The notes below the pieces were generated by a model. The model did not search any database. It was given only the letters and a program-made list of their open reading frames with translations, and was not told the origin of the DNA. Of a stretch of DNA of 64,000 nucleotides, positions 33,631 through 61,282 are shown piece after piece. The number at the start of each line of letters is the position of its first letter. Positions within the stretch are counted from its first letter, which is position 1. Source of the stretch: Candidatus Binataceae bacterium (GTDB lineage Bacteria > Desulfobacterota > Binatia > Binatales > Binataceae); assembly GCA_050011435.1 (NCBI GenBank), contig JBEKJC010000005.1, positions 45,941 to 109,940 of the forward strand. The letters run 5' to 3'. Made by a program: the position numbers and the translations under genes.

Positions 33631-35036
33631 CGTGCCCCGAGTCCGCCCGCGCATCGATACGCTGACGGTGATATGGTCTTCACCGCTGGCGTGCCGTTAT
33701 ACTTCGGGCGCGTCAGTTGTGATTCGACGCCGTCATTCAGGGTCGGGGTGTGGCGCAGCCTGGTAGCGCACACGCTTGGGGTGCGTGTGGTCGCCGGTTC
33801 AAATCCGGCCACCCCGACCAACAATAAATCCTTTGTTTTCAAGTAGTTAGTGCACTGACCGCGCGGTCGACCGCCCGCAGGTTCCGGCGATTGTGCCCAA
33901 TTTTGTGCCCTCCCCCCCTCGTAGCCAGAAATATCCGTGTTTTTTGCGGTGCGCTCCAGGGTCGCGATGGCCTCGCGCCGGGCTTGCACGCGGATGTGAG
34001 CGTAACGGCCAAGCATCCGGTCGCTCACGTGCCCGGCCAGTTGCCGGATGGTCTCGACCGACACGGTCGCGTTCTCCGCAAGACGGGTGACGAACGTGTG
34101 GCGCGCATCGTAGAAGCGGCACGTGACCGCGACCTTTCGCCGTGCGGTTTCAAATGCGCTTTTGTAGCTCCACTGACCCATGGGGCGATTCAGGTCCACG
34201 TCCCAGATCAAAGATTTACGGCTGTTGCCTGCCAAACCCACCCGATGAAACGGGAAGACGTAGTTGTCGGGCCCGGTCTCGGGAAAGCGCCCACGCCAGA
34301 TGGTAAGCGCTGCGCAGGCGCGCCTGGTGAGAGGAATGACGCGGCCGGTGCCACCCTCGGTCTTGGATCGCGACACCACGATCTCGCCTTCGCTGATTGC
34401 GCCATCCGTCCAGCGCAGGGCCAGGTCACACCAATGGAGCGCCCGGCTCTCGGACGGTCGCAGGCCCGCATCCAGCGACAACACGAAAAACGGATACAGG
34501 ACCGGCGACGGGCTTGCGGCAATGGCCGCGAGCAGCTTGTCTTCCTCTTCGAACGAAAGAGCGCGTCCGGCATCGGTCCTTTCTCGGAGAAACCGAACTC
34601 GACCGCCAAGGGGCGACCAGCAGTCGCAGTGCTTGAGAATCTGCCTCAACGTCGCCACTTCGCAATTTATGCTTCGAGCGGAGAGCCGCTCGCCAAGGCG
34701 TTTCCTCTGCAGTGCCGCGATATCGTTGATCGTAATATCCGACACCAGCCTGCTACCGAACTCGCGCACGAGCTTGCGCGAATATTGTTCGTAATAAACT
34801 CTGCCGAGGGGTGTGAGGGCGCTTTTGGATGCGAGCCACTCCTTGGTGGCCAGCGCGAATAGGGGCAAGCGTTCACGTTTGGAGATGCGGTTGTAACCCA
34901 ATTCGAGGTCGCGTCGGCGCGCCCGTTCCGCTTCGCGCGCGACGGTCTTCGAGTTGGTTTTTGCCGAGTCCCGTATGAGCTGCCCTTGGAAGAGGAACTT
35001 GAACCAATACGTCTCGCCTCGTTTATAAACGCTCAT
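33543..35036 (-). CDS. int: tyrosine-type integrase (phage integrase family); the ORF has no stop until 33543 and runs antisense through tRNA-Pro
   Basis: N-terminal SAM-like domain (MSVYKRGETYWFKF...). Catalytic R...HxxR (ARHTFVTRL)...H (LAGHVS)...Y (LGRYAH) around residue 345. RBS GAGAGAGG before ATG 35036. The functional C-terminus is probably well upstream of 33543. Confidence 0.85.
   Translation of the reverse strand: MSVYKRGETYWFKFLFQGQLIRDSAKTNSKTVAREAERARRRDLELGYNRISKRERLPLFALATKEWLASKSALTPLGRVYYEQYSRKLVREFGSRLVSDITINDIAALQRKRLGERLSARSINCEVATLRQILKHCDCWSPLGGRVRFLRERTDAGRALSFEEEDKLLAAIAASPSPVLYPFFVLSLDAGLRPSESRALHWCDLALRWTDGAISEGEIVVSRSKTEGGTGRVIPLTRRACAALTIWRGRFPETGPDNYVFPFHRVGLAGNSRKSLIWDVDLNRPMGQWSYKSAFETARRKVAVTCRFYDARHTFVTRLAENATVSVETIRQLAGHVSDRMLGRYAHIRVQARREAIATLERTAKNTDISGYEGGRAQNWAQSPEPAGGRPRGQCTNYLKTKDLLLVGVAGFEPATTRTPSVCATRLRHTPTLNDGVESQLTRPKYNGTPAVKTISPSAYRCAGGLGARQAFFLAATRGRHWKKDRKSMAKVHAFRG
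33590..33635. repeat. 3' end of the SDR gene; a second copy lies at 48283-48335
   Basis: CGGGTCGCGGCCAAGAAAAAGGCCT is identical over 25 nt, and the flanking TTCCAATGG...GACGT is also similar. Confidence 0.7.
33744..33820 (+). tRNA. tRNA-Pro (anticodon GGG), 77 nt including CCA
   Basis: Folded manually: 7-bp acceptor CGGGGTG/CACCCCG, D-arm GCGC-AGCCTGGTA-GCGC, anticodon arm CACGC-TTGGGGT-GCGTG, T-arm GCCGG-TTCAAAT-CCGGC. Confidence 0.85.
33891..33911. repeat. arm-type-like direct repeat TGTGCCCAATTTTGTGCCCT just inside the left end of the island; a second copy lies at 61086-61106
   Basis: A 20/21-nt exact repeat found near both island ends in the same orientation. It contains an internal GTGCCC-N6-GTGCCC direct repeat. 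Confidence 0.6.
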
Positions 35037-35067
35037 CGTCTTTCCTCTCTCCGTATCTCACGCCATC

Positions 35068-35278
35068 TCACGCCGCCCGACTGCTCGCCTCGGCCAGGTA
35101 GCGACGAACCTCGGCATCGAGCACAACGACTCGACGCCCCAGGTGAGCCGCGCGCAGCCGGCCACGCTTTACTTCGAGCCGCAGAAAGGGGGACGGACAC
35201 GCCCAAGCTGCGCGCCAGTTCCTCGAGCGTCCAACCGAGCTTCGGGCTGTTCGATTTCATCACCGCCTCGCTTTCCAT
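35068..35278 (-). pseudogene. xis: excisionase/AlpA-like HTH DNA-binding protein, frameshifted at a C5/G5 run (35188-35192)
   Basis: Frame 1 reads MESEAVMKSNSPKLGWTLEELARSLGVSVP. After a -1 shift the frame reads FLRLEVKRGRLRAAHLGRRVVVLDAEVRRYLAE. Together they make a complete excisionase-type HTH. Sits directly upstream of int. Confidence 0.55.
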
Positions 35279-35418
35279 AGCGTTACCGTCCTGGCCGTGC
35301 CACTTCGTTGCGCCGTTGTGAGCCGATTTCATGACCTGCACCTCATAGTTGTTACGTTGCATGCAGTTTTGATAGCACACGTCGGTGCGGCCATGCAAAC
35401 GTCCCGAGTGTGCCCGGT

Positions 35419-36117
35419 TTATATGGCGGATTGGTTCGCGAGGTAGCCGAGCTGGACCAGGCGGACGCCGGCAGCCTCAGCCGAGACGAAGAACGCCTCG
35501 CTGACGCGTTGCTTCAGATCTGTCGCCCTGGTCGATTGGGCCGGCAGGGGTGCAACGTCGATTGTGCCAAGGCAAGCCTCGGCGACCAGCTTCAAACGGC
35601 TGATCGGCATCAGCAGAGCTCCGGCCGCGTAGCTCGCCTGCCATTCCATCCAGTCTACCTTGGGCCGCAGCGCGAGCGTCTCGTCGCCCGTGCAGTGCTG
35701 CTCCTGGCGCCTTGCTATCGCCGCTTTTTGATAAAGCGGATTGTGCACGCAAACGTGCACATATTCGTGGGCCAGCGTGAAACGACAACGATGCACGCCC
35801 CTGGCGTCCTCATGAAGCGCTCGGGCGATTCGGACCTCCGGTTTTCCCGGCGGATCGAAGAAGGTGACGCCCAGCAGCCCCTCCGCGACCTTGGTCAGAT
35901 CGGCGTAGAGGTTGAGTTCCCGGGCGTCGCGCTCGATTAGCTTGATGAGCGCGCCGGTCGGCACCGGCACGGTGATCTGGCCGTAAAGTTCGTTCAGAAA
36001 CTCGAACAGGATACGCTCGCAGCATTCATCGAGGTAGGCTCGCGTATACCAGGGACGGCGGCGGAAGCGCCCGGTTGTGTCGTGTATCCACTCAACCTCG
36101 AGATCTTCCTCGCTCAT
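35419..36117 (-). CDS. ImmA/IrrE-family metallo-endopeptidase
   Basis: TLAHEYVHVCVH is the HEXXH motif. DUF955-like, and paired with an XRE HTH gene. Confidence 0.8.
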   Translation of the reverse strand: MSEEDLEVEWIHDTTGRFRRRPWYTRAYLDECCERILFEFLNELYGQITVPVPTGALIKLIERDARELNLYADLTKVAEGLLGVTFFDPPGKPEVRIARALHEDARGVHRCRFTLAHEYVHVCVHNPLYQKAAIARRQEQHCTGDETLALRPKVDWMEWQASYAAGALLMPISRLKLVAEACLGTIDVAPLPAQSTRATDLKQRVSEAFFVSAEAAGVRLVQLGYLANQSAI

Positions 36118-36440
36118 CGCTTCTTCCCCTTGGCCTTGAGCTCCTTGCGGAAAGCGCGATAGGCGGCGAGTACCTGCTCCTCGCCGGCTTCCTTGGGCTG
36201 GATATCGGACGGCACTTTGCCGGCGACGAAGTAGAGCAGGTCGGCTTCGAGGTCGAGTTCCCTGGCGAACTGCTCGATGAGATAGCCACGCGGCGGATGG
36301 CGCAGATTGTGTTCGAGGTCGTTCAGGTACGGCGCCGATATTGGTCGCCCGTCTTCCATCTTGATGCGCGCCGCGAATTCGCGCTGAGTTAGCTTCGCGC
36401 GCTTGCGTCCCTCCGCAATCAGCTCTCCGAAGGTCTTCAT
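36114..36440 (-). CDS. XRE-family HTH transcriptional regulator (ImmR-like)
   Basis: FGELIAEGRKRAKLTQREFAARI matches a Cro/C1 HTH. Overlaps immA by 4 nt. Confidence 0.8.
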   Translation of the reverse strand: MKTFGELIAEGRKRAKLTQREFAARIKMEDGRPISAPYLNDLEHNLRHPPRGYLIEQFARELDLEADLLYFVAGKVPSDIQPKEAGEEQVLAAYRAFRKELKAKGKKR

Positions 36441-36716
36441 GTCACGTTGTGGTGTTCCGCGCCTCCTGCGATGGATATTATCGTGCCTGCATGTAGATGT
36501 CACGAGCGGAACCGGCCGCACTCCCGGCATTGAAAGAGAAAGCGCACTTTTTCTCGCGCCGCTCTCTCAACCAAACCTGGAGAGCGGCGCGCAGGTTTTG
36601 CGATGCGCGCGTCGCAGCGCTGCAACCGTGACGAGCCTTGCGGCCGGCCCGCCAGGGCCGGCGGCGCGGTTGCCAGCGGAGCGCGCGCCACCAGTTTTGC
36701 ACGGTCTGCGACAGCC

Positions 36717-37154
36717 TCAGGTGACCCACACCACTTTCAGACCGGCGCGATCCGCGGCCTCACGTTGTCGCGCGTCGGCGGTAGCGAAGGGCAGCGGCGC
36801 TCCGGATTCCATCTGGAGTACCAGCGCAGAGGCGATGTGGAGAGCGTCGAGGGTCCTGACCGGCGTCTGCAGGATCAGCCGTTCGGCGCCTTCCAGCACC
36901 CCTGAGCCGAGTTCGACCAGTTCCCAGTAGGAACGGTCGGCGTTCATTCGGGCGACGATCGTGTCGAAATCTGTCCGGGTCACCTCTCCAGCCCGATATC
37001 GGCGGGCAATCGCGGAGACTGCTTCGACTGGTGCGATAACGGACGACAGCAAGCGATAGCGGCGCATCAGCCGCCGGGCATGAGCGGAGCCGGGATCCTC
37101 GACGTAGCGCTTAATCAGAACACTGGTGTCGAAATAAGCTAATGCCTCCGCCAT
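36717..37154 (-). CDS. vapC: PIN-domain toxin VapC
   Basis: YFDTSVLIK (the acidic PIN Asp) and downstream D/E residues. Overlaps the antitoxin gene. Confidence 0.75.
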   Translation of the reverse strand: MAEALAYFDTSVLIKRYVEDPGSAHARRLMRRYRLLSSVIAPVEAVSAIARRYRAGEVTRTDFDTIVARMNADRSYWELVELGSGVLEGAERLILQTPVRTLDALHIASALVLQMESGAPLPFATADARQREAADRAGLKVVWVT

Positions 37155-37447
37155 CAGCGATCCTCCCGCTCGACGCGAACCGTATCCGAGAGTGGGGCTC
37201 CCGAAATCTTGCGGGGTTTCCATAGCGGTAGCGGGCCGGCTTTGGCGGCGCGGCGCACCAGACCCTGATCGTCGAGGCGCCGAAGCAAATCCGCCGTGGT
37301 TTCCGCCTCCGGACCCGCCGGCGCTTCGATCCGTGTAAGCCGGGCGACCGGGCGACCGCGCTCAGTGAGCACTACCTCGGTGCCACGCCGAACGGCCCGT
37401 ATGAGCCGCGAAAAATTTTGATTCGCTTCGCGCAGTCCAACCCGCAT
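37154..37447 (-). CDS. vapB: Phd/YefM-type antitoxin (VapB)
   Basis: MRVGLREANQNFSRLIRAVRRGTEVVLTERGRPVARL fits a Phd/YefM N-domain. Confidence 0.7.
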   Translation of the reverse strand: MRVGLREANQNFSRLIRAVRRGTEVVLTERGRPVARLTRIEAPAGPEAETTADLLRRLDDQGLVRRAAKAGPLPLWKPRKISGAPLSDTVRVEREDR

Positions 37448-37532: not shown

Positions 37533-40253
37533 TCATCGTCGCAACCCGTGGCCTTGGCAGCGGCGGCGGAGGTTTTGCTCCGCGACGATCCGGACGCCGG
37601 CAAGTGAATTCCTTTGCACGTGTTCCAGAGCCGTGGACTTCTCACGGTTCCGGCTAACAACTTGGCGTAGTCGCTCGTGATCGTCGGTATAAATGCTGAT
37701 GCCGTTCCGGGCGCGGCTGACCGACACGTAGAACTGCTTGCGGTTGATGAGCTCGGCGCTCCGCTCCGTATCGATGTTGACGATGACGCGATCGACAGTC
37801 GTACCCTGGCTTGAGTGGGAGGTCGAGGCGTAGCCGTAGTCGATGTGACGCAGACGCTCAATGGTGGCGTGGATTTCGCGGCCGTCCTCGCCCCGAATCC
37901 TTGCCGTGCGTTCATCGATCGCCAAGATAGTTGCGAACTCACCGTTGGCGAGACCCAGCGTGCGTTCTGGTGCGCGGAACTGAATCCGGTCGCCCGGGGC
38001 GAATTTGCGCTGCTCCGTGCGGAGAACCTCGACCCCGGAAAGCCGCTTCGGTGAATAGTCAAAGCGCCTGCCATCGTTCAGTACCACCGAGAGTCGTCCG
38101 GCGTCGGAGTCCACGCGCTCTACCACCGCGTGAGCGCCCTTCTCTATCCCCAACCTCTTGCTGCCGCGCGTGAATCGCACGATGTCGCCTACGTCGTAAT
38201 TTCGAGCTTGTCCGCGCTGACTGCGGGTCAGGTCGCGATTTACGAACACGGTGTGCAACACCTCGCGGCAATCGATCATCCCGCGTTCCTTCAGCGTCTG
38301 CCGGATGACGGCATTGAGTTGGCGCCGTTCCTCGTTGGCCGGACTTACCACTAAGACGCGTTCCCGCGCACCATGGGCTGCGACGTATTCCGCGGCGATC
38401 GACGCGTAGCGCCTGACGGTATCGCCAAGCTCTCGGATTCGACCGAATCGTTCCAGGATGTCGATCGACTCGGCGATCTCTCCGTTCGCCGCGTGGTTAA
38501 CCGCTTTGCGCAGTTCGGGATCGCGCTGGCGGCGAATCACGTCGAGCCGGGCGACCCGCATGCCGGCCTGCTGCATCTGATAGAGCGGCCGTCCCGCCTC
38601 GATCGCATGATGCTGGCGCTGGTCGCCGACGAAGACAATCCGCACAACGCCCGCGTCGCGAGCCTTGCGCAAGAGGCCGTTCACTTGTCCGGTCCCGAGC
38701 AGGCTCGATTCATCGATGATCCAAAGCTCTTTGCCTTGTGCTTCTGGTATTGGATTCTCGATGAGGCTCGCGACGGTGCGGGCAGAGATCCCCGCGTCGC
38801 CGAGCGCCTTAACGGCACGCGTCGTTGGCGCGAATCCTTGCACGGCATAACCGTAATCCTCGGCGAACTCCCGAATCGCCCCAACCGTAGTGGTCTTCGC
38901 CGCTCCCGCGCGTCCCTCGACCGCACTGATCCAGTCGTTCGCGGTCACTGTTAGCTCCGCGACCTCGGCCTGATCGGAGAGCAGCCCTCGTCGTGCAGCC
39001 CACGCGCGAACCTCGTTTGCACTTGCGATACTTTGCGCGCCATCCCGACCAACCAGCATCAGATCTAGATTCTCGCGTTCAAGCGCCACCATCTGCGGTG
39101 TCGTGAAAGCGCCCTGCGGCGATCTGACGGTGGCGCCAATCTGGATCAGATTGGCGGCTCGTTCCCATCCATCCGCAACACTCCGCACCTGCTCAAGGTC
39201 CGCCCTGCCCATCGCATGCTGGAGTGCGGTCGCCTCGATTGCGCGGCGGTCGATCACCGCTTCGCGTTCGGTGTGGTGCGCGACGCTGTATTCGAGCGCA
39301 TCGTCTATCGAGGCCTTACTTCGCTCTGGCACTGGTTGGAGATTCGTGAGCGGCCGGGCCAGTTCGATTCGATATTCGTGTGCGCGCTCGCGCCATTCCG
39401 CCTTGAGGCTCTCTTCGTCGCGACGGTCCTTGGGGCACCTGGTCTGATGGGCGAGGTTCTGTGCGGCAGCGGCACCGTTTAGTCCCTGACGCGCCATCGC
39501 CGCCTCGATGTCCTGGCGCCGGCGCGAAAATGCCATCACCTGCTCGCGAGTGTATCCCGCAAGCTCCCAGCGGCCATCTGCGCCAGTCACATCGATCCGA
39601 TAGCCGAGATCTTGCACTTTAAGCGCAAGCTCCGAACGGTACACGCTGGTCGCGAAACTCTGCGAGCGGTAGATCTCGATCGGATCGAGCCCGCGCCACG
39701 CGCCGTCTGGGCGCCTCGTCATGTTGGCGATCACGACGTGGGTGTGGAGGTGCGGGTCGGGGCCGTAGCCGTCGTCAGCGCCCTGTGAAGGTCGCGCGGC
39801 GATGTGGTCGAAGCGGGCCGCGACGACGTTTCCGGTGATCACCCATTCGTGCCCGCCGTGCTGGCGCGATAACGCATAGCCCTCAAGTTCGGTAAGAGCG
39901 CGACTCACGGCGTTGCGATGCGCCTCCGCGAGCCGCGCGTCGCTGCCAACCAACGCCTGCACGCTTACCGACTTGGGCGCGTTGAAGGTTGCATCCCATC
40001 CGGCGCGGCGTTCGTCGCTGCCCCTGGCGTTTGGAACCAGCACTTCGCCGGTCGCCGGATTAAGCCCGTGCAATACGGCGCGAAAATCATCTGACGAAAC
40101 CTCTTCCGCGAGTCCGAGCGCTTCCCCTCCTCGACCGCACCACTGTCCGGCAACCCGGTGCTGCTCGGTGTAGTAGTCGTCCTGGGAGTATTTTTCCTGG
40201 TAATAGGTCTCCGCCTGTTTGGCGCTGAGCGCGCCTTTCGACATGACCAGCAT
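37533..40253 (-). CDS. MobF-family conjugative relaxase (TrwC/TraI-like relaxase plus RecD-like helicase)
   Basis: Relaxase N-domain (AETYYQEKY...DYY, with HTHVVIAN as the His triad). C-terminal AAA_30/UvrD-like helicase (GRAGAAKTT, ViVFVGDQRQ). Confidence 0.9.
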   Translation of the reverse strand: MLVMSKGALSAKQAETYYQEKYSQDDYYTEQHRVAGQWCGRGGEALGLAEEVSSDDFRAVLHGLNPATGEVLVPNARGSDERRAGWDATFNAPKSVSVQALVGSDARLAEAHRNAVSRALTELEGYALSRQHGGHEWVITGNVVAARFDHIAARPSQGADDGYGPDPHLHTHVVIANMTRRPDGAWRGLDPIEIYRSQSFATSVYRSELALKVQDLGYRIDVTGADGRWELAGYTREQVMAFSRRRQDIEAAMARQGLNGAAAAQNLAHQTRCPKDRRDEESLKAEWRERAHEYRIELARPLTNLQPVPERSKASIDDALEYSVAHHTEREAVIDRRAIEATALQHAMGRADLEQVRSVADGWERAANLIQIGATVRSPQGAFTTPQMVALERENLDLMLVGRDGAQSIASANEVRAWAARRGLLSDQAEVAELTVTANDWISAVEGRAGAAKTTTVGAIREFAEDYGYAVQGFAPTTRAVKALGDAGISARTVASLIENPIPEAQGKELWIIDESSLLGTGQVNGLLRKARDAGVVRIVFVGDQRQHHAIEAGRPLYQMQQAGMRVARLDVIRRQRDPELRKAVNHAANGEIAESIDILERFGRIRELGDTVRRYASIAAEYVAAHGARERVLVVSPANEERRQLNAVIRQTLKERGMIDCREVLHTVFVNRDLTRSQRGQARNYDVGDIVRFTRGSKRLGIEKGAHAVVERVDSDAGRLSVVLNDGRRFDYSPKRLSGVEVLRTEQRKFAPGDRIQFRAPERTLGLANGEFATILAIDERTARIRGEDGREIHATIERLRHIDYGYASTSHSSQGTTVDRVIVNIDTERSAELINRKQFYVSVSRARNGISIYTDDHERLRQVVSRNREKSTALEHVQRNSLAGVRIVAEQNLRRRCQGHGLRR

Positions 40254-40256: not shown

Positions 40257-42083
40257 TCATGCCCGAAGGCGCCTGCTCGACGGCGCCTGCTGACTGGTGG
40301 GAGCCTTGGTTAGCCGCTCGCCCGGTAACCGGAGATTGCCGGCCGGCATCGACGCTGCGCTTTGATCGCTGGACTGCGCCGCCATCACCCGGCGCATGAA
40401 ACCCGGATGGCGCTTGATCGGGGCGAGATACGGAATCGTGACCCGCGCCCGGTGATGGCCGGTGACGCAGAGATAGCCCTCGAACGGTTGCAGCATCTGA
40501 ATCTCGCTGCCAAGCACGGAGCTCTCGATGATGCGCTGCGGATGAACGGAGAAGCTGTCGCGGTGCTCCTTCAGGCCGGTGTTGCTTCCGATCTGCGAGC
40601 GGCTGATTTCGCGCTCGCCGATCTGCGCGCTCGACCAGCGTGCGGTCTCGGCCTCGCCGGTGCGCAGGATTAGCTTGGTCGCCGGCGCCGCGGCGAGCGT
40701 CGCGGTCTGCTCGTGGCCGTAGATCGCGCGCAGCTGGGTGATCGCCTGAAACCCCAGCACCGCGCACAGTCCGCGCTTGCGCCCGCGCACGACCAACGCT
40801 TCGAACTGGCTCTGGCGTTTCAGTACCGGCAACTCGTCGGCGACGATCCAGACCTGCTCGCGCCGCTCCTGTTCTGCCATCAGCCGGCGCACGATGCAGT
40901 CGAGCCACACGCTCTGCAGCGGCAACGCCGCGTCGCGCGAGTCCTCGGTCGAAGTCAAAAACAGCCATCCCTCCCGCGCCTGCGCCCATTCGAGCGCGCT
41001 CCACGCCCACTCGGTCCCGCTCGGCAGATAGCGGAGCGAGTTGGTCGCGTTGAAGGCCGTCGCGACGATTCCCGCCCCCTGATCGTGCGCACCGGGATCG
41101 ATGAGCGCTTCTGCCGGCGTGCCCCGCAGCGCCTCCTTGAGTTTCGCTCTTGGCAGGGCGAGCAGCTTCGGGATGTCGCCGGGCTCGCGCGACCTGACGC
41201 TCTCAAGCAGCCCGACGATCAGCGTCCGCGCCGATTGCCGAAAGAAGAAGTCGGCGCCGCTCTGGCTGAACATGTTGGACGGGTCAGGGATGAGCGCCGC
41301 CGCCAGCGCCTCGGCGTCCATCGCCTCGCTGCCGGGCTTGAGCTCCCACCACGGCGACCATGCCGGGCAGCGCGCATCGAGCGGGTTCAGGATCAGGTCG
41401 CGGCGCGCGTGCCGGAAGAACTCGGGGAGGTATTCGCACTCCGGGTCGAGCACCACGGCGGTTTCGCCGCGCGCCTCGATCTGCCGTAGCATGCGGCGGA
41501 TGGCGGTGGATTTTCCAGAGCCGGGCGCACCCACGAACATGAAGTGCTGGGGCTCCAACGTCCGCTGGATACGAATGCCGCCGATCTCGACGCCGTTGCC
41601 CTGAAGCTCGTGACGCAGGCGGCGCTGCGGGACAACGTCGGTCCCGCGCACATAGCGGTCGTCGGTATGGTCGCGTCTGGGCCTAAAGAGGATCAGGCCG
41701 ATCCCGACGACGGTAATCGCCGTGACCAGAAAGCCCCACGGCGCATAGTGCCAGAACCAGCCGGGGAACGAACCGCCGGAGTAGTACTTGTAGCAGAGGA
41801 ACGGGTACATGCTCGGGATGGTGTAGCGCCCGCCGCGGTAGGGCACCGAGCCGAACGGCAAAGGGATGATCTCGCTGAAGAACCAGGTCAGAATCCAGAG
41901 TCGGAAGTGACGTTGAGCGGCCGCGCCGCCATAGTAACCGGTCCAGTACCAGACCAGACCGAACGTCAGGGCCGCCCACACCAGCGTCATCACGACCGCG
42001 ACTCGCGCCGCCATCTGCGTCCACAGCGCGAGCGATGCGCCGTCCGACCGCCATCTGATCGCCCGGTAAACACCCGCGCTCAT
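40257..42083 (-). CDS. type IV coupling protein (TraD/TrwB/VirD4 family)
   Basis: N-terminal TM helices. Walker A FVGAPGSGKST. TraD/TraG-like core. Confidence 0.9.
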   Translation of the reverse strand: MSAGVYRAIRWRSDGASLALWTQMAARVAVVMTLVWAALTFGLVWYWTGYYGGAAAQRHFRLWILTWFFSEIIPLPFGSVPYRGGRYTIPSMYPFLCYKYYSGGSFPGWFWHYAPWGFLVTAITVVGIGLILFRPRRDHTDDRYVRGTDVVPQRRLRHELQGNGVEIGGIRIQRTLEPQHFMFVGAPGSGKSTAIRRMLRQIEARGETAVVLDPECEYLPEFFRHARRDLILNPLDARCPAWSPWWELKPGSEAMDAEALAAALIPDPSNMFSQSGADFFFRQSARTLIVGLLESVRSREPGDIPKLLALPRAKLKEALRGTPAEALIDPGAHDQGAGIVATAFNATNSLRYLPSGTEWAWSALEWAQAREGWLFLTSTEDSRDAALPLQSVWLDCIVRRLMAEQERREQVWIVADELPVLKRQSQFEALVVRGRKRGLCAVLGFQAITQLRAIYGHEQTATLAAAPATKLILRTGEAETARWSSAQIGEREISRSQIGSNTGLKEHRDSFSVHPQRIIESSVLGSEIQMLQPFEGYLCVTGHHRARVTIPYLAPIKRHPGFMRRVMAAQSSDQSAASMPAGNLRLPGERLTKAPTSQQAPSSRRLRA

Positions 42084-42487
42084 TGCTTCGCCTCTTGCGC
42101 GCCGTCGAGGTGCGCGAGGTACTGACGAGCGGTCTGCTCCGAGGCTTCGATGATTTCGTCCACCATGTTTGCCCCCACGGTCTGGTCGAGCGAATGGAAA
42201 AGCGCCGAGCGGCTCTTGACCACTTCGAACAGGAGCTGGCCGTAACGCTCGGCCTCCGCCTGCTCCAGGCGCTCGAACCCCTTCCTGAGCGCCTCCAGTT
42301 TTCCGCCGAGCGCAGCGAGGGACGCGGTATCGGCGCCGCCCTGACCGGCGAGATCGAAGTGCTGTGCGATCAGCGATTGAAGCAGGGTGGTCGGCGTTGC
42401 GTTCATGCTCGCCGCGTGGTTCTCGACTTGCGCGGCATATTTCTCCGGGAGCCGGATCGTGTAGGTTTTCTTCGTCTCATCCGCCAT
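42080..42487 (-). CDS. ribbon-helix-helix relaxosome accessory protein (MobC/TraY-like)
   Basis: KKTYTIRLPEKYAAQVENHAASMNATPTTLLQSLI fits an RHH fold. Sits immediately upstream of T4CP and the relaxase, with the repeat region just 5'. Confidence 0.55.
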   Translation of the reverse strand: MADETKKTYTIRLPEKYAAQVENHAASMNATPTTLLQSLIAQHFDLAGQGGADTASLAALGGKLEALRKGFERLEQAEAERYGQLLFEVVKSRSALFHSLDQTVGANMVDEIIEASEQTARQYLAHLDGAQEAKQ

Positions 42488-48335: not shown

Positions 48336-48344
48336 AAATCGCCC

Positions 48345-53064: not shown

Positions 53065-53155
53065 CTCGGGTGCGCGCCCGAGGCGTTCGCGCGCACCTGT
53101 GTGGCTCTTAGTTCGCAGTTCGTAAAGACGTAGAGATCTCCGTAGCCAACATCAA

Positions 53156-53869: not shown

Positions 53870-54053
53870 TGCAGAACCTCCCTGAGTGCGGGGCTAATCG
53901 AGGCTGCCCTGAATCTGAGCCAAGTGTTGGGCAGCATGCCACAGCCTCTGACCGCTCTGAGAGTTCGCCGATCCCAGCTACCCCGGCGGTCCGATAATAA
54001 ATTGAGCTATCTTGGCACAACCCCTTGAAGGGACCCTCAGCCTGCGGCCTAAT

Positions 54054-56279
54054 TTAACGAATATATGTTGGCGGGTTGCGCTCTCCGACGGCCCGGCTGC
54101 GCACCAGTTCGGCGAGGCCCGGTAATTGATCTCTATCAATCACCATTAAAAGGATCCATTTCCTCGCGTCCGGACTGCTTGTGCTGATTGAGCGGGGCGG
54201 CGATATCTCGACTCTCTTCACCAATATCCGGTACACCGTGGCGAGCCGTTCCACGACTTCTCGAGAGCTGAGCACCCCGATAAGAATTTGCCTGTCGTTG
54301 AACGACTCGAGTACCATGCCGTTTTGCGCAGGCGTGGCGCGGTCATATATCGACACACCCGAAACCCACAACGGTGGTAGAAGCCCAAGCCGCTGCACTT
54401 CAGACGGGCTCAGCCCCGCAGGACTTAGCCCGCGCGCGGTATATTCGCTTGCTGCGTTAATCAAAGCGTCAAGGCGTTCGGTGGCGACAGCTTCTTCCTC
54501 CTTTCGCGGATCATGACTTATGTAACTGCTCAAACGAGATAGCGGCACTTCATAGATGGAAACACCACCCACCTTAATCGGGTTCAAAGCAAGACTCGCG
54601 AAGGTCGCGTTTATCGCTCGCTTCTCGTCCGGTTCGAAATGGCTGCGCTCCGTCGTCGGAGGACCTTGGTCGAAAACCAATCTCCACATGTGCGCTCCCT
54701 CGTCAGCAACGATCACCTTGCTAATATGCTTCTGAACTAAAAACGTCTTCAGTGCCTCATCTGAGTGTGGAATTACCGTTAAATTATACAGACTATCCGT
54801 AATCGCATAACGTGCGAATTCCCTTGGGAGCGGAGTCACGCTAACCCATCCACCTGCCATCCGAAAATACAGATGAGTATTCACCAGCCAAATATCACTA
54901 TTCCCCTCGTCCCCGTATGGAAGCATTAAAACGATCTCACCTGGTGACAGATATTGTTTGTACATATCTGTCGCGAAAAATGCTGGTGTGTCAACGTCAG
55001 TCGTCCAGAAAGCAGCACTGGGGTTAGGTAAATAGCATAATATGATTGCAATCGCGCCAGCGATTCGGACCGTCGGTTGGATTGTTTTGTCGGCCAACCA
55101 GAGACTCGCAATTATCGCGAAAATAAGGAAAGCATACAGAGCAAAACGCGCCGGTAGTACTTCGTCGCTAAGAGGCAGGCGAGAAAGTATTGTCCACGGC
55201 ATCGGTATTGTCAGATGGGTAGTAATGCGAAGTATCGGGCCAAGCGAAGCTAAGAGAATTATAATTAGCAAGGCCAGAAGTAGCCTAGTCTGTGCCACCA
55301 TCCAATGTCTGCGCGAGTAACTCCACACTATGAGGATTAATGGGAACGCAACGTACGCTCCAGTTTCTTGAAGGTTAAATCCACCGCAGAGCTTCCTGGC
55401 AAAGAGGGAGGTGCCGAAACAATTAGTGGGTGAAGGAAAAAACATTCCAGATACATGAATTGAAACAGCTGTGGCCAGGCCAGTTGGAAAGTCCTGAGGT
55501 CCAAACACGAAAAAGTAATATAGATACAGACTAAGCAAGACTGCAGTAATAATATATGCGAACGAAATGGGGAATATTAGAACGATCAGGCGATCGCGCC
55601 ATTGAGGCGCTATCCAGTAGCCGATCGCAAAGGCTGCCCAGCCGAATACTGTTGCAGTAGCGAATACCTCTAGTGAGCATGTGGCTTGAATTGTCAAAAG
55701 AAGGCACAGCATTATTATGAATCGACGGGAAGGCCAGATACCGTCTATTCGGAGCAGTATTACCATTAAAATGATAGGAATCGCGAAAACCATCAATGCG
55801 TGAAGATGGCCCAACATTTGCCCGAGCATGTATGGAGAGAACCCGAAAATATAGCCGCCGACAAAAGCCGACCTTGATGACGACGATAAATACCGACAAA
55901 CAGTGAAGCCGGTCCACGCAGCAATCGCCGGACTTACGAGTATCATCAAATTGTAGGTTGCTAGCGGTCCGAGATACTCGGTCAGCGGAGAGGCTAAGAT
56001 ACCAGCGAGTGGGACGAATGTCGTACGAGCGAGATTTAGTCCACTCGGAGCCCAGACAATGTTCGTAAAAAATGGATTTAAGCGATGAAGTATTGCGTAC
56101 TTCCACCATTCCAAGAAGAAAATGAACAAGCCCGGGTCGGTGCCGATTCCGATGTAGCGGTCCGAAAGATGGCCGACCAGGCCGCGCCCGAAGAACAGAA
56201 AGGAGAGAGCAAGATAGATTGCGAACGCTCCGAGACCGAGGCGGTTACCCAGGCTTTCTTGAATAGTTTTAGATTTCAC
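54054..56279 (-). CDS. large membrane protein, paralog A (N-terminal ~13-TM domain plus C-terminal periplasmic domain)
   Basis: 741 aa. N-terminus LSFLFFGRGLVGHLSDRYIGIGTDPGLFIFFLEWWKY is shared with paralog B (roughly 45% identity overall). Confidence 0.5.
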   Translation of the reverse strand: MKSKTIQESLGNRLGLGAFAIYLALSFLFFGRGLVGHLSDRYIGIGTDPGLFIFFLEWWKYAILHRLNPFFTNIVWAPSGLNLARTTFVPLAGILASPLTEYLGPLATYNLMILVSPAIAAWTGFTVCRYLSSSSRSAFVGGYIFGFSPYMLGQMLGHLHALMVFAIPIILMVILLRIDGIWPSRRFIIMLCLLLTIQATCSLEVFATATVFGWAAFAIGYWIAPQWRDRLIVLIFPISFAYIITAVLLSLYLYYFFVFGPQDFPTGLATAVSIHVSGMFFPSPTNCFGTSLFARKLCGGFNLQETGAYVAFPLILIVWSYSRRHWMVAQTRLLLALLIIILLASLGPILRITTHLTIPMPWTILSRLPLSDEVLPARFALYAFLIFAIIASLWLADKTIQPTVRIAGAIAIILCYLPNPSAAFWTTDVDTPAFFATDMYKQYLSPGEIVLMLPYGDEGNSDIWLVNTHLYFRMAGGWVSVTPLPREFARYAITDSLYNLTVIPHSDEALKTFLVQKHISKVIVADEGAHMWRLVFDQGPPTTERSHFEPDEKRAINATFASLALNPIKVGGVSIYEVPLSRLSSYISHDPRKEEEAVATERLDALINAASEYTARGLSPAGLSPSEVQRLGLLPPLWVSGVSIYDRATPAQNGMVLESFNDRQILIGVLSSREVVERLATVYRILVKRVEISPPRSISTSSPDARKWILLMVIDRDQLPGLAELVRSRAVGERNPPTYIR

Positions 56280-58447
56280 TTCTCGTGCGGTGTCGCGGCT
56301 GCGGAACCCAGACGGGTTGGATCAAACTCCAGCAGTAAAATCCATTGGGTGCTCTCCGCCCAGATCGCTACCGGCATCAGCGGCGAAACTTCGACCTTCT
56401 TCGCGAAAGGCTTGTAGATCGGGGCGACGGCTTCAACTGTATCGCGCGCGCCCATCACTCCGACCAATACATCTCCATTATTGACAGATGAGAGCACCAA
56501 GCCATTTACCAGGGAGGCTCGCGGATCGAGGGCATTGACCCCAGAGGCCCAGTGCGGCGGAAGAAGTTTCAAGCGTTGGGCTTCAACCGGACTCAGGTCA
56601 GATGAAGGATGACCATCTGCAAGATACTTCTGCGCGGCACTGATAAGCGCGCCGAGTTGAACGGCCACCATTCGCCTTTCGAGAACGCGCGGGTCCACGT
56701 TCTTGTAGGCGTCCAGTTTCTCGAGTGGAACCTGGTAGAAAGAGACACCGCCAATATGTATGGGTGCGACGCCCAGCGACGCGAACAACGAACGAATTAC
56801 TATTCTTTCGTCGGTAGTGAACTCGGTACGTTTGGGAAACTGCGGTCCGGGGTCATTGTTCTTTATCCATAAGTGCGCGCCGTCGTCTGCGACGACGATC
56901 GAGTTAACCTTCTTCTGAACCAGAAAGGCCTTGAGCATTTCGCCCGCATAAGGAAAGTCGGCCAAGGTGTAGAAGCCATAGATCGTTGGAAAGTACGGCA
57001 GATACTCCCTTGGAATTGGCGGCTGGCCTACATATCCGCCGGCCATGCGGAAATAAAATCCACTCATAGCCTGCCAGATATCGCCAGTGGCGAATCCGCC
57101 ATAGGGAAGAATCAAAACATTATCGTCGGGCGCAATGTAGCGTCTATATATTCGAGCCGAAAAGAAAGCCGGTGCGTCAACAGGCGTCGTCCAGTAAGAT
57201 GCGCTTAAATTTGGCAGCGTGAAAAATACCACGGCGCCGGCGCCTGCCATTCGGAGAGTCTGCCGGATGGAGCCATCGCTGAGCCAGAGACTCACCACTA
57301 TACCTAGAATCAGAAAGCAGTAAACCGAGAATCGCTCGGGCATAGCTTTGTCTATCAGCGGCAAATGCGCTGCGATTGCCCATGGTAATGGAATTGGTCG
57401 AGATGCCGGGATGCGTAATTCCGATCCAAGCGAAGCAACGGTGACAACCACCAGAAGCATCACGAGAAGTCGCGTGCGCCAATCGTGCCAATGGGCGTGC
57501 GCGAAGGCCACAACAATTAGAAGCAGCGGCAGCGCGATGTATGCTCCGGTCTCGTAAATGTTACTTCCACGGGACAGTTCGTGAACCAGATGGATTGTTC
57601 CAAGCAGAGTAGTGGTCGTCGGAATTAGAAAATTGGAAGGGTAAACCGAAACGAACTGTCTCAATCCACCTGGAAGCGGCAGATGGCCGAATGCGTAAAA
57701 GTAGTAAAGGTACGGACTGAGGATAATCGCACTCGCGACATACGCGCATGAAGTTGGAAGGACGAGACCTTGCAGACGTTCGCGCCATTGGGGCGCCGTC
57801 CACCATGCGATCGCTATCGCAGTGCCGCCAAATAGGGTAGCCGTAGCCACCGCCTCCGGCCAGCACAGGAAGAGAGCGACTATCAAGATGCTCAATGTGA
57901 TCGCGAAGTTGCGTGTGCTGATTTCCTCGTTCAGCCGCCGCAATGTCACTAGTACCATCAAGGGCACCGGAAACATCATCAGTACCGTTAAGTGGCCGAG
58001 TAAGTGACAGAGCATCCACGGAGAAAAGCCGAAAGCATAGCCGCCAACGACAGCCGCCCAGAACGAAGAACATAGATACCGGCAGAGAAGGAAGGCGGTC
58101 CATGCTGCGAGTGCCGGGCAGAGCAGCACCAACAGGTTGAAGGTCGCGATGGGACCCAGGGTTGCAGTGAGCGGGATCGCGGCGATTCCAAAAAGTGGTA
58201 TGAAGGTTACCCAAGCCAGGTTGGCGCCGCTTGGCGCCCATTGCAGATAGGTGAAGAACGGGTTTACGTGATGAGTGAAGACGTATTTCCACCATTCGAG
58301 GTAGAAAATGAAAGCGCCCGGATCCGTACCGATTCCTATGTAACGGTCGGAAAGATGACCCACCAGACCACGGCCAAAGAATAGAAACGAGAGAACCAGA
58401 TAGATAAAAAGTGGACTGACCTTACTATAATCTCGCCTACCACACAT
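56276..58447 (-). CDS. large membrane protein, paralog B
   Basis: 723 aa in tandem with paralog A, overlapping it by 4 nt. Same architecture. Confidence 0.5.
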   Translation of the reverse strand: MCGRRDYSKVSPLFIYLVLSFLFFGRGLVGHLSDRYIGIGTDPGAFIFYLEWWKYVFTHHVNPFFTYLQWAPSGANLAWVTFIPLFGIAAIPLTATLGPIATFNLLVLLCPALAAWTAFLLCRYLCSSFWAAVVGGYAFGFSPWMLCHLLGHLTVLMMFPVPLMVLVTLRRLNEEISTRNFAITLSILIVALFLCWPEAVATATLFGGTAIAIAWWTAPQWRERLQGLVLPTSCAYVASAIILSPYLYYFYAFGHLPLPGGLRQFVSVYPSNFLIPTTTTLLGTIHLVHELSRGSNIYETGAYIALPLLLIVVAFAHAHWHDWRTRLLVMLLVVVTVASLGSELRIPASRPIPLPWAIAAHLPLIDKAMPERFSVYCFLILGIVVSLWLSDGSIRQTLRMAGAGAVVFFTLPNLSASYWTTPVDAPAFFSARIYRRYIAPDDNVLILPYGGFATGDIWQAMSGFYFRMAGGYVGQPPIPREYLPYFPTIYGFYTLADFPYAGEMLKAFLVQKKVNSIVVADDGAHLWIKNNDPGPQFPKRTEFTTDERIVIRSLFASLGVAPIHIGGVSFYQVPLEKLDAYKNVDPRVLERRMVAVQLGALISAAQKYLADGHPSSDLSPVEAQRLKLLPPHWASGVNALDPRASLVNGLVLSSVNNGDVLVGVMGARDTVEAVAPIYKPFAKKVEVSPLMPVAIWAESTQWILLLEFDPTRLGSAAATPHEK

Positions 58448-59230
58448 GGTTGCAGCCCAACTCCCACCACCTCAGGAGCACCATGATGCCAAAGAAACAT
58501 GCCAATGTCAGCGGCGGCACCAGCAGACTGAATGGGCGGTGCCGTCTCGGAAGCCGGCCACGGAGAGGTCGGCAACTGCGCGTCTCTGCATTCGGGCTAT
58601 GCCGAAGCCGTGGCGCTCCTCGATCCCGTATTGGCCGGTCGTGCGACGGCGAGAATCCGCGGAGGGCTTCGTAAATGTGATCCGCTCTCGAAATCACCCG
58701 TCAGGCTTCTACGCTCTCTTTTAAATCTCGTTTACAAATCAGCCGGCCATGTCGAGTGGGATCCCGGCGATTCCAAAAAGTGGTATGAAGGTTGACCAGG
58801 CCAGATTGGCGCCGCTTGGCGCCCATTGCAGATAGGTGAAAAACGGATTTACGTGATGAGTGAAGACGTATTTCCACCATTCGAGGAAGAAAATGAACAA
58901 TCCGGGGTCGGTGCCGATTCCAACGTAGCGATCCGAGAGATGTCCGACCAAGCCACGTCCAAAGAATAGAAACGAGAGAACCAGATAAATAAAAGGCGGA
59001 CTGACCTTACTATAATCTCGTCTACCACACATGCTTGCAGCCCAACTCACGCCACCTCAGGAGCCCCATGATGCCAAAAAAACATGCCAATGTCAGCCCG
59101 GTCGCACCTGCAGATTGAGTGGGCGGTACCATATCGTGAGCTGGCCAAAGAGAGGTCGGCGTCGACCCGGTCCTGCGTGCGGGCTATGCCGAAGCCGTGG
59201 CGCTTCTCGATCCCGTATCGGCCCGGATTG
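58166..59230. repeat. tandem duplication: ~480-bp segment (58166-58645) repeated at 58751-59230, ~90% identical
   Basis: Read directly. It spans the first ~280 nt of paralog B plus ~200 nt of upstream sequence. Confidence 0.75.
58739..59032 (-). pseudogene. 5' fragment of paralog B created by the tandem duplication
   Basis: Encodes MCGRRDYSKVSPPFIYLVLSFLFFGRG...FIPLFGIAG, nearly identical to the first ~90 aa of paralog B. It terminates at the copy boundary. Confidence 0.55.
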
Positions 59231-59336
59231 CCGAGCTATCCCCCTGTCACTCCTAGCGGCCTATGTTTCAGTGTATTGGTTCGCCGCCGACTACGAAACA
59301 ATATGGTTTCTGCATGCGCTGGAAGTTTTCGCCACG

Positions 59337-59678
59337 ATGACAATCTTCGGCCTCATTGCAATTGCGCTGGGCGTGGCGGTGAGCCCGAGTGAGAGCAGAC
59401 GAATCGTGAGTGCGGTACTTCCGCTCGCGATTGGGCACATACTGGCGGCCGTGATCGTGATTTCAACGAGCTATTTCGAGCTGGGCCGGCTTTCTTTCTT
59501 CAAGGCAATCGCGATCAGATTTCCATTCGACCAATTTGAGTCCGATACCTACTTCGGGCCGGTCCTAATCGCGATGGCGGCGCTCTACGCCCGTCGCCAT
59601 TGGCACGGGCCGTTCGCCCGGATGATGATTGCCGCGCTGATCATAATCGCGGTATTCTCGCTTGGCACACCCTCATGA
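59337..59678 (+). CDS. small 4-TM membrane protein (possible GtrA-like flippase component)
   Basis: Four hydrophobic helices. The start is ATG 59337 or GTG 59271. It overlaps the start of the next gene (ATGA). The function is a guess. Confidence 0.35.
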   Translation: MTIFGLIAIALGVAVSPSESRRIVSAVLPLAIGHILAAVIVISTSYFELGRLSFFKAIAIRFPFDQFESDTYFGPVLIAMAALYARRHWHGPFARMMIAALIIIAVFSLGTPS

Positions 59679-60916
59679 AACGGTTAGCGCTCGCCCTGCT
59701 CTGGTCGATGGCCGGCCTCTGGGCGTTGGCTATATTTGGCAACGTCGCTGCGCGCGTGAACCGATGGGACTTTAGTCATTACTATCTGTCGGCGCTGGCA
59801 CTGCGGCAGGGCGCGAATCCATACCTGATCGACCTCAACTCCGTACCAGGCGCAGCGGGAATGGAGCTAGGATTGATCAATCACGCCAGCTACCCACCAA
59901 CCTTCCTGTTGTGCTTCGAGCCGTTTACCCTGATGCCCCCGGTGCCAGCGTACTGGACCTGGTTCGGATTGAACCTGGCGGCTCTCACAGTGGCGTTAGC
60001 GATGCTGCTCGGCGGGCGAAGCGAAATCGATTTTGTCACCGGCGCATCGCTGGTCGCGTTGGCGATTCTATACCCGCCGCTCTCGAACCATTTCAAGTTT
60101 GCACAGACTCAAATCGTGATTCTGCTGCTTCTGGTCGTAGCGATGCGGGCGCTAGCCAGCGGCAATGATCCGCTCGCGGGCCTGATACTGGCTTTCGCCG
60201 GGCTGCTTAAGGTGTTTCCGCTGGTTATGGCTGGATACTTGATCGTGGGCCGGCGGTGGCGAGCGCTCGGATGGATGATCGCGGGTTTGGTGGCCGGGGG
60301 CTGCCTCACCCTAGCCTTGGTTGGTGTAAAGCGGAGCTTCAGTTTCATAGGTCAGGCAAGTTTCCTGACCAGCCGACACTGGTATGACCAAGCTGCAAAC
60401 CTCTCAGTGAGCGCCACCGTGTCGCAGGTGTTTTGGTATACATTTGGAAATTCGCTAAGTTGGCCACTCGATCTTCTCCGTCACACAGCAAGCGCAGCAA
60501 CCGAATTCGGTCTGTTGGCGCTCACCATACGGGCGACCGCGTCGCGCGCGGAGCGTGGACAGGATCCCGATTCGAGCGCATTCGCACTGTGGGTTGTCGC
60601 TATGATCCTGCTGGCACCAACGGCGTGGCTCCACTACCTCGTGCTGCTGTTCATCCCGTTCGCGCAGATCACGATCGCAGTCTGCGGTGAACGCGCAAGC
60701 CGGCGAACGGTCCGCATGATGATCGCGAGCTACATCATTATAATTGTCGGAATGCTCACACTCGGGGCCTTCGAGTCATCCTTCTCCGAGCAGCTGGTGA
60801 TTGCCTTCAGAGAGTTGGCTTTCGTATCGCTCGTAATGGCCTACATTGCGACATACTGGTTCGTGCGCGATGCGCCGGGTGAAATGCAGGCTACGGGTCC
60901 GGCTGCAAGCCGTTGA
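59675..60916 (+). CDS. DUF2029 / GT87-like polyprenol-phosphate-sugar-dependent glycosyltransferase (membrane)
   Basis: ~410 aa with multiple TM segments and the central GLLKVFPLV motif region typical of DUF2029 transferases. Confidence 0.6.
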   Translation: MKRLALALLWSMAGLWALAIFGNVAARVNRWDFSHYYLSALALRQGANPYLIDLNSVPGAAGMELGLINHASYPPTFLLCFEPFTLMPPVPAYWTWFGLNLAALTVALAMLLGGRSEIDFVTGASLVALAILYPPLSNHFKFAQTQIVILLLLVVAMRALASGNDPLAGLILAFAGLLKVFPLVMAGYLIVGRRWRALGWMIAGLVAGGCLTLALVGVKRSFSFIGQASFLTSRHWYDQAANLSVSATVSQVFWYTFGNSLSWPLDLLRHTASAATEFGLLALTIRATASRAERGQDPDSSAFALWVVAMILLAPTAWLHYLVLLFIPFAQITIAVCGERASRRTVRMMIASYIIIIVGMLTLGAFESSFSEQLVIAFRELAFVSLVMAYIATYWFVRDAPGEMQATGPAASR

Positions 60917-61085
60917 TCGATCGGAACCAGAGCAGCTCCCTCAATCGCATTATCCGATAGGGCGGGGCTGCCTATGTCTGATCGCCAACTCTTCGGAGCA
61001 CTCGATCCTGGGACCGCGCCGCGAGTCTCTTCGAAATGAGACCGGCTTTCCCTGCCCGATTCACGCTCACAGGCGGACAATTTAC

Positions 61086-61106
61086 TGTGCCCAATTTTGT
61101 GCCCTA
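61086..61106. repeat. second copy of the arm-type-like repeat CTGTGCCCAATTTTGTGCCCT, ~130 bp inside the right island end
   Basis: Identical to 33891-33911 over 20 nt in the same orientation. Confidence 0.6.
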
Positions 61107-61237
61107 CCTGCATCAAAATTGGTGTCACTCGATACTGCTCCAGAGTTCAAGTCCAAGTGCAGGAAACCCCTCTGCCACAAGGGTTTTCGTGCTACCGAGC
61201 GGTACTGAACGATACCTATGATTCTTCGTCATTTTCG

Positions 61238-61282
61238 TTTGGGGTGCGTGTGGTCGCCGGTTCAAATCCGGCCACCCCGACC
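61238..61282 (+). repeat. 45-nt 3' fragment of tRNA-Pro (anticodon loop to CCA): right attachment-site direct repeat
   Basis: TTGGGGTGCGTGTGGTCGCCGGTTCAAATCCGGCCACCCCGACCA is identical to 33776-33820. Confidence 0.85.

Follow-up and report, generated by a model that had tools for sequence, protein, structure and literature searches.

A probable mobilizable island at a tRNA-Pro(GGG) gene of uncultured Binataceae, and the covariation of its integrase family with arm-type sites

The genomic island described in this study resembles in its parts several systems that are well known from other bacteria, namely the IncW plasmid R388 with its transfer operon trwA-trwB-trwC, the ICEBs1-type control of excision by ImmR and ImmA, and the lambda integrase (Int) with its attachment site attP. 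As a whole it is closest to those integrative mobilizable elements (IMEs) whose relaxase is of the MobF class. A review from 2017 gave MobF IMEs as unknown (Guedon et al. 2017, PMC5704250). MobF IMEs at tRNA genes, some of them with virD4-like genes, have been catalogued in Mesorhizobium (Colombi et al. 2021, PMC8627217), so the kind itself is already known. The island reported here lies in a stretch of 64,000 nucleotides (the window) from a Candidatus Binataceae bacterium (NCBI GenBank assembly GCA_050011435.1, contig JBEKJC010000005.1, positions 45,941 to 109,940 of the forward strand), an uncultured bacterium of soil or peat. Window positions 33776-61283 very probably constitute a 27.5-kb IME, of a family common in uncultured Binataceae, that was inserted by site-specific recombination in the 3' part of a tRNA-Pro(GGG) gene. 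Like the Mesorhizobium elements it has an integrase gene beside a tRNA gene, att repeats, a MOBF relaxase, a coupling protein (virD4-like in some of the Mesorhizobium elements), no mating pore and a variable cargo. It differs from them in belonging to another phylum (Binataceae/Binatota), in having a trwABC-like gene order instead of traACD, and in its ImmA/XRE regulation, and it is known here from sequence alone. The element is therefore ordinary in kind, a tRNA-targeting mobilizable island, and new in its host. In the literature we found no description of mobile elements of Binataceae/Binatota, only mentions in passing.

The boundaries of the island are given by the tRNA gene. ARAGORN finds one tRNA in the 64-kb window, a tRNA-Pro with anticodon GGG at 33744-33820 on the plus strand, where a preliminary description made from the letters of this DNA had placed it. 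The gene is intact after integration, it is identical to the tRNA-Pro gene of the closest relatives, and its 3' part from position 33 onwards forms the attL core. This core, a 45-nt block that runs from the anticodon loop to the 3' CCA (33776-33820), is repeated exactly at 61239-61283, at a start-to-start distance of 27,463 nt. This second copy, the attR core, is the part of the tRNA's 3' end that was displaced, and ARAGORN calls no tRNA there. The preliminary description had recognised the exact repeat but set its right copy one base too far left, at 61238-61282. If one mismatch is allowed, the repeat grows to 48 nt (33773-33820 and 61236-61283). Direct repeats derived from the target tRNA thus stand at both ends of the island.

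One of these ends also carries the element's own site-specific recombinase, as judged by Pfam and by fold matches. The tyrosine integrase open reading frame (ORF) occupies 33543-35036 on the minus strand and is 497 aa long as it stands (Pfam Phage_integrase, E=2.4e-16). Its functional part is approximately aa 1-367, and residues R193, K225, R312, H336 and Y345 are conserved in the alignment of the integrase family. An AlphaFold model of 375 residues (pLDDT 85.5) gave Foldseek matches to the Tn1549, lambda and Cre recombinases, and full-length lambda Int chains align with it over 369-373 columns at a sequence identity of ~17%. In the model the N-terminus consists of strands at residues 2-6, 9-16 and 19-24 and a helix at 30-48 (pLDDT 86-89). 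A flexible linker connects it to a helical core-binding domain, after which comes the catalytic domain. Fold searches with the isolated N-domain returned no specific match and were uninformative. The remainder of the ORF runs through an arm-type site, the att core, the antisense strand of the tRNA and the end of the neighbouring gene of the SDR family, with no stop before 33543. Read-through as a conserved feature of the integrase was considered and rejected, since most homologues are ~391 aa long and stop ~25 nt before the core, and in a sister lineage that has C6 where the window has C7 (~33912-33918) the integrase ends at 398 aa. In the excised form the integrase would end at 427 aa (...NENDEES), near the tail of the attP-form protein P0126.

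The arms of the att sites carry a repeated sequence of their own. The 20-mer TGTGCCCAATTTTGTGCCCT occurs exactly twice in the 64 kb, both times on the plus strand, even when three mismatches are allowed, and shuffled sequences are expected to contain it 0.00 times. The left copy (33892-33911), the putative P' arm-type site, consists of two TGTGCCC half-sites 12 nt apart, lies inside the 3' tail of the int ORF and starts 71 nt past the tRNA end. The right copy (61086-61105), the putative P arm-type site, ends 133 nt before the right repeat. These distances match the ~70 and ~130 bp of the preliminary description, and its proposal that the motif is an arm-type site of the integrase has gained support from fixed offsets in relatives and from covariation with residues of the integrase N-domain. 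In 11 relatives the left-arm motif is found at the same offset from the tRNA end, and all related left arms are bipartite, reading either TGTGCCC..TTGTGCCC or TGTGGGG..TTGTGGGG. Related right arms have the motif ~130 nt from the core in the relative's own variant, and both arms carry the matching variant in the window and in relatives L092, L006 and L016. The sole exception is L025, a remnant without an integrase, which has GGGG in its left arm and CCCC in its right. Repeated sites are therefore present in both arms, apart from the core and at conserved positions. This arrangement resembles that of lambda, whose direct-repeat sites likewise lie in both arms away from the core and whose int likewise has a small excisionase gene upstream; a sheet-plus-helix N-domain as in lambda Int is predicted here. 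Lambda has five arm sites and a 15-bp core, whereas here one bipartite site per arm was detected, the core is a 45-nt tRNA segment, and the P' arm site lies inside the coding tail of int.

Across 120 homologues the last ~20 codons of int encode the motif, as AQNWAQ or as PQNPPQ/PQKSPQ, and this made it possible to test which protein reads it. Motif class was compared with the alignment columns of 81 integrase homologues by mutual information, for which the maximum was 0.999 bits. Residue 13 (K or E) predicted the motif class with 0.999 of 0.999 bits, followed by residue 20 (V/L/A or R; 0.965 bits) and residue 15 (0.844 bits). The eight best covarying columns all fall in aa 13-39, and no column outside aa 1-50 rose above 0.36. 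The motif classes are not clades, because class switches at least 14 times on a tree of integrase aa 60-360. Identity within and between classes is 0.706 versus 0.690 over aa 60-360, and 0.707 versus 0.628 over aa 1-50. Where the motif was read directly in the DNA, it is GCCC in the window, L074, L023 and L092, all of which have K13 and L20, and TGTGGGG in L039, L012 and L006, all with E13 and R20; L075, which has E13/R20, has one half-site TGTGGGG and the other TGTGGTG. In the AlphaFold model, covarying residues 13, 15 and 20 are placed on strands 2 and 3 of the N-terminal sheet-plus-helix domain. The integrase looks heterobivalent, with a predicted three-stranded sheet and helix (aa 1-48) that may read the pair of TGTGCCC half-sites found once in each arm. 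Recognition of the arm sites by the N-domain is what the covariation, and the covariation only, suggests.

A different explanation of the 20-nt motif would be that it is a site for the excisionase (Xis) or for a host factor, or that it is conserved only because it encodes the C-terminal peptide of the integrase. The peptide version is suggested by the position of the left-arm motif, which lies inside the int ORF throughout the family and encodes AQNWAQ or PQNPPQ. However, the right-arm copy lies outside int and yet matches the left-arm variant within each element. In addition, an integrase that is 97% identical reads the same motif DNA in another frame (GHKIGHN), which indicates that the DNA, not the peptide, is what is under constraint. 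As for the excisionase, relatives have a Xis 81-84% identical to that of the window whichever motif class they belong to, whereas Int residues 13, 15 and 20 differ almost perfectly between the classes. The likeness of Xis across classes, together with the difference in frame, favours the integrase as the reader of the motif, and it is very unlikely that the motif is something other than an arm site.

Two short metagenome contigs connect this anatomy with movement. The first, L093 (5.5 kb), agrees with the window at 99.96% identity between the att core and 38767, and over these ~5 kb the two show 2 differences, whereas in the flank of L093 the SDR gene is 67% and the SDR-tRNA spacer 54% identical; no reference genome is more than ~75% identical to that flank. 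The tRNA gene of L093 is a chimera, its 5' half being that of the host and its 3' half that of the element. The break between host and element falls between position 6 and the 45-nt block, so that the gene combines C6, as in 18 genomes with a C6:G67 pair, with the element's A67, and of 73 tRNA-Pro genes this is the only one with such a C6/A67 mismatch. The second contig, L092 (1.7 kb), belongs to a related element (Int 78% identical), and in it the P arm, core, P' arm and int are contiguous, which is the attP configuration. The junction that the preliminary description predicted, which here may be that of a circle or of a tandem, is thus seen in a relative, while that of the window's element itself was not found. 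With the relatives and the covariation, these contigs support the preliminary description in its central claim of a tRNA-Pro(GGG) island with att repeats and integrase arm motifs. A scan of JGI metagenome contigs with one degenerate pattern covering all four att junctions returned one attL, from a sister lineage, and one attR, from the host of the window; neither attB nor attP of this element was among the results. The window sequence recurs at 100% identity in JGI and ENA assemblies, on at least 21 contigs from many samples and always in the same host context. Exact-protein look-ups of the relaxase and of a 723-aa cargo protein likewise led to the same host context only, at 100% identity; for the SDR protein the look-up returned no record.

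The host locus was surveyed in relatives with the SDR protein as query and one genome per species, which yielded 80 loci, all from metagenome-assembled genomes of Binataceae ('Binatia'). In the window the island is flanked by the SDR gene on the left and a luciferase-like monooxygenase (LLM) gene on the right (both by Pfam), and the preliminary description took both to be the original neighbours. The tRNA-Pro(GGG) gene follows the SDR gene in ~70 of the 80 relatives, and the sequence downstream of the tRNA is hypervariable, differing in almost every one of them. The SDR-tRNA arrangement is thus ancestral, and the downstream side of the tRNA is an integration hotspot. The LLM gene is next to the tRNA in none of the 80 relatives, and neither are the 7 kb of right flank (from L094), so the ancestral position of LLM was not confirmed. 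A homologous integrase (53-80% identity) is found at the same tRNA in 7 of the 80 genomes, 2 of which also have the relaxase and the coupling protein; in other relatives the tRNA is accompanied by remnants of an integrase or by additional partial tRNA copies, as many as three in a row. In L030 (10807-12812) and in L016, L025, L041, L047, L049 and L051, one to three extra partial tRNA copies delimit remnants of 1-8 kb. In L084 (1-7633) a sister element, whose attL region is 94% identical, has a neighbour other than SDR upstream of its tRNA-Pro(GGG), a third chromosomal context.

The excisionase gene of the window is damaged. It lies at 35071-35260 on the minus strand, adjoining int, and is split by one extra C in GTCCCCCTTT at ~35186-35192. 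Relatives encode '...SVSVPFLRLEVKRGRL...' in one frame, whereas in the window tblastn aligns two segments whose frames differ. The unrepaired ORF has no HTH_17 match, while the repaired protein matches at E=1.3e-7 with 32.2 bits versus a cut-off of 27; the small HTH_17 gene is therefore present in the window, but split and not intact. The gene is intact in L074, L039, L023, L092 and L102, and L102, a sister lineage 95.6% identical in DNA, differs in xis by exactly this indel.

From this it could be argued that the island is locked in and decaying, with a frameshifted xis, an inserted IS3 element and no pore, so that it can no longer excise in this genome and is inherited only vertically. All copies of the window's lineage share the frameshift while five relatives have an intact gene, the scan found neither attP nor attB of this element, and at least 21 contigs from many samples have the same host context at 100% identity. 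Decayed relatives also exist, L039 with a truncated relaxase and coupling protein and L001, L005, L014 and L033 with integrase remnants. However, L093 carries the same frameshifted xis beside a chromosome that is 67% identical, with 2 differences in 5 kb, which means that the frameshift predates what appears to be a very recent change of host. Additionally, int, the relaxase gene and the coupling protein gene are full-length, and Xis could come in trans from related elements, which are abundant in this family. A locked-in island is thus a possibility that we regard as somewhat unlikely.

The split gene leaves three explanations: related elements provide Xis in trans, excision has no strict need for Xis, or low-level +1 slippage restores the protein. 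At sites of the CCC-C type, tRNA-Pro(GGG) and tRNA-Pro(UGG) have been described as especially liable to slip by +1 (PMC4519876), and a shift of exactly +1 on GUC-CCC-C-UUU is what would bring back the excisionase. That the element can alter the tRNA-Pro(GGG) gene is indicated by the C6/A67 chimera of L093. It would follow from an extension of the third explanation that Xis output, and hence excision, is set low by slippage of the very tRNA that the element targets and can alter. The main support for this idea is that the frameshifted element apparently changed host recently. However, an intact xis is the rule in ~300 homologues, which makes programmed frameshifting unlikely, and we consider the idea extremely improbable.

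Among the other genes in the interior, the preliminary description had named mobile-element genes of several kinds. Pfam confirmed int, the ImmA/XRE genes, the toxin-antitoxin pair noted as vapBC, the relaxase, the type IV coupling protein (T4CP) and the IS3; the TrbC-like protein remained below threshold, and xis proved to be frameshifted. The transfer module is on the minus strand. It includes a MOBF relaxase-helicase of the TrwC/TraI type at 37533-40253 (Pfam TrwC, E=2.5e-82, and AAA_30), a coupling protein of the TrwB/VirD4 type at 40257-42083 (Pfam TrwB_AAD_bind, E=4.9e-90) and, upstream of the latter, three small conserved genes at 42080-43202, which encode a 151-aa protein, a small ORF and a 107-aa membrane protein. 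The 151-aa protein has a ribbon-helix-helix (RHH)-like N-terminus that makes it a TrwA-like candidate (Pfam RHH_1, E=0.12, sub-threshold), and the 107-aa protein is TrbC/VirB2-like, below the Pfam threshold. As in R388, a small RHH-like protein, a TrwB-type coupling protein and a TrwC relaxase-helicase follow in the same order. Unlike in R388, the trwD-N pore genes are missing, the module is chromosomal and linked to an integrase, and the RHH match is sub-threshold. No plasmid MobF relaxase in PLSDB exceeds 39% identity to the relaxase of the island, the best of them (38-39%) being from Acidobacteria, and the 342 homologues of the coupling protein are mostly from Binataceae. A candidate region for the origin of transfer (oriT) lies at ~43200-43640, upstream of the TrbC-like or RHH gene.

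Neither VirB4 nor any other mating-pore protein was found by Pfam in any island ORF of at least 80 aa. The island therefore has a relaxase and a coupling protein and no complete pore, and lacks the complete type IV secretion system of an integrative and conjugative element (ICE), so it is classed as mobilizable and not conjugative. The same combination could result from degeneration of an ICE that lost its type IV secretion genes, and both the TrbC/VirB2-like small protein upstream of the coupling protein and the presence of the IS3 just beyond the transfer genes could be seen as traces of such a loss. However, L086 and L088-L091 have the same short module (TrbC-like protein, small ORFs, T4CP 69-85% identical, TrwC) with no pore genes or VirB4 within 10 kb, and the IS3 has an intact 3-bp target duplication, which indicates that it caused no deletion; it merely splits an aldolase gene. 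Homologues of the small genes are found in the same order in L086, L088-L091 and L074. The last of these has the TrbC-like, 151-aa, coupling-protein and relaxase genes, and its locus stops ~300 bp beyond the TrbC-like gene. Related loci share a module of XRE, ImmA, TrbC-like, small ORF, coupling-protein and TrwC genes, joined to differing integrases. Since this pore-less module is common to related loci, it points to an IME by design and not to a truncated ICE, for which the case is highly improbable. In L088 and L089 (~15300-16660) the transfer module (coupling protein 72% identical) occurs with an unrelated integrase beside a tRNA-SeC gene, and in L089 the integrase ORF adjoining tRNA-SeC also crosses the tRNA.

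Between xis and the relaxase gene lie four genes, all on the minus strand. An ImmA/IrrE-type metalloprotease, a putative anti-repressor protease, is encoded at 35419-36117 (Pfam Peptidase_M78) and is conserved in related elements. It is followed at 36114-36530 by an XRE-family helix-turn-helix regulator, an ImmR-like repressor candidate whose match to Pfam HTH_3 (E=1.8e-4) is just under the curated cut-off; gene callers start this gene at ~36440, and it too is conserved in relatives. As in ICEBs1, an XRE-type repressor gene and a Peptidase_M78/ImmA-type protease gene stand beside int and xis, and the pair is conserved across the family, so that a similar role may be proposed by analogy. Unlike in ICEBs1, the XRE/ImmA pair of some relatives of this element is on the far side of the transfer module. 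The remaining two genes form a toxin-antitoxin pair with a PIN toxin (36717-37154) and a Phd/YefM antitoxin (37154-37447; Pfam PIN and PhdYeFM_antitox).

Beyond the transfer genes, the IS3-family insertion sequence (44092-45471, plus strand; rve and HTH_Tnp_1) has 27-nt imperfect inverted repeats and a target duplication of GAT. It splits a class II aldolase gene at ~codon 167, and its removal gives back an ORF of 217 aa. The rest of the island is a cargo with a set of sugar and envelope-glycan genes (45472-60916, given without regard to strand). GC content drops from 0.61-0.67 to 0.48-0.58 between ~46 and 61 kb, and the lower-GC cargo of the preliminary description is thereby borne out by measurement. 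Besides the class II aldolase, the cargo encodes a GmhB-like phosphatase, a GT9 heptosyltransferase-like protein, a 546-aa polytopic membrane protein, a PMT_2 glycosyltransferase, a methyltransferase, tandem paralogous membrane proteins of 741 and 723 aa, a copy of an N-terminal fragment and a GT87 glycosyltransferase. The two paralogues (54054-59223) have ~9 predicted membrane helices and a soluble tail of ~300 aa and belong to no curated family; the N-terminal 300 nt are duplicated 585 nt away at 88% identity (58169-58468 and 58754-59053). Searches of Pfam (at lenient thresholds), NCBIfam, PHROGs and PADLOC gave no match for the 741-, 723- and 546-aa membrane proteins. Genes for phage capsid, terminase, tail or phage-type replication were not found with Pfam and PHROGs, and PADLOC matched only the ImmA/XRE regulators, weakly (capP-like, HTH), and no cargo protein. 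The cargo probably modifies the cell envelope.

The contrast between backbone and cargo raises the question of whether the island is a composite, in which an IME backbone of ~10 kb (33.8-44 kb) was joined to a lower-GC island (~45-61 kb) of independent acquisition and with former boundaries of its own, so that the outer repeats would now span two historical insertions. The GC step is sharp, from 0.62-0.67 to 0.48-0.58, and in the closest relative, L001, homologues of the 741- and 723-aa proteins (~70% identity) lie directly beside an integrase remnant at the same tRNA, with no transfer module. That accretion occurs at the tRNA-Pro site is evident from the partial tRNA copies that stand in tandem in other genomes, and an exact 26-nt copy of the SDR gene's 3' end lies at 48295-48320. 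However, neither the att core nor the arm motif occurs a third time within the island, and the right end on the cargo side is a genuine P arm as found in this integrase family, with 80% identity to that of L092, so the cargo sits where IME cargo normally sits. The cargo genes of L001, at only ~70% identity, are paralogues and not the same insertion. A composite origin is distinctly unlikely.

The 26-nt repeat (GCGGGTCGCGGCCAAGAAAAAGGCCT) is found at 33603-33628, in the 3' end of the SDR gene, and at 48295-48320, between the convergent GT9 and 546-aa genes, and shuffled sequences are expected to contain none. It was considered as an internal att site or a tRNA relic and rejected, since the similarity in the alignment ends at the 26-mer. 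Another intergenic feature of the low-GC cargo is a perfect 42-nt palindrome, AGCTGGGTAGTGGGCGGTTTT/AAAACCGCCCACTACCCAGCT, at 50195-50236. The window has a second GC dip (0.51-0.56) at 6000-8000, around a 384-aa ORF without a Pfam match that adjoins a radical SAM gene; this dip has nothing to do with the island.

Several observations weigh against the classification as an IME inserted at the tRNA gene. The 80 loci contain no empty tRNA-Pro site with the right flank of the window, and no circular junction of this exact element was found. The frameshift in xis is present in every copy of the window's lineage, including L093. L092 and L093 are short metagenome contigs, and either could in principle be a mis-join across the shared tRNA segment of 45-60 nt. 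No oriT was identified in the island, no search aimed at one having been made, no helper conjugative element was seen, and the GC content of the cargo is sharply unlike that of the backbone.

A mechanism can be proposed from the anatomy and from the systems compared above. The attP of the element would carry a copy of tRNA positions ~33-77, and recombination, most likely in the anticodon loop, would rebuild an intact tRNA at attL and leave the 45-nt 3' fragment at attR. On the tRNA-derived core the integrase would use its core-binding and catalytic domains. For excision the adjoining HTH_17 excisionase would normally be required, and the ImmA/XRE pair would probably control it. The circular element could then supply its own MOBF relaxase, coupling protein and probable RHH accessory protein, and would borrow the mating pore of a co-resident conjugative element, while the PIN/Phd pair may stabilise the element.

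The most reusable result of this study is the covariation between arm residues of the integrase and arm sites, which is unusually clean. The pairing of K13, L/R15 and V/L20 with TGTGCCC, and of E13 and R20 with TGTGGGG, recurs across many independent switches. From it follow a directly testable rule for the reading of DNA by an arm-binding domain and a means of predicting arm sites from the integrase sequence alone. In these genomes of Binataceae the tRNA-Pro(GGG) locus has proved to be a hypervariable hotspot of integration, and the island documents a family of mobilizable islands in this group, a phylum-level lineage without cultured members. Its cargo suggests that genes for cell-envelope glycans move horizontally between soil and peat Binataceae.

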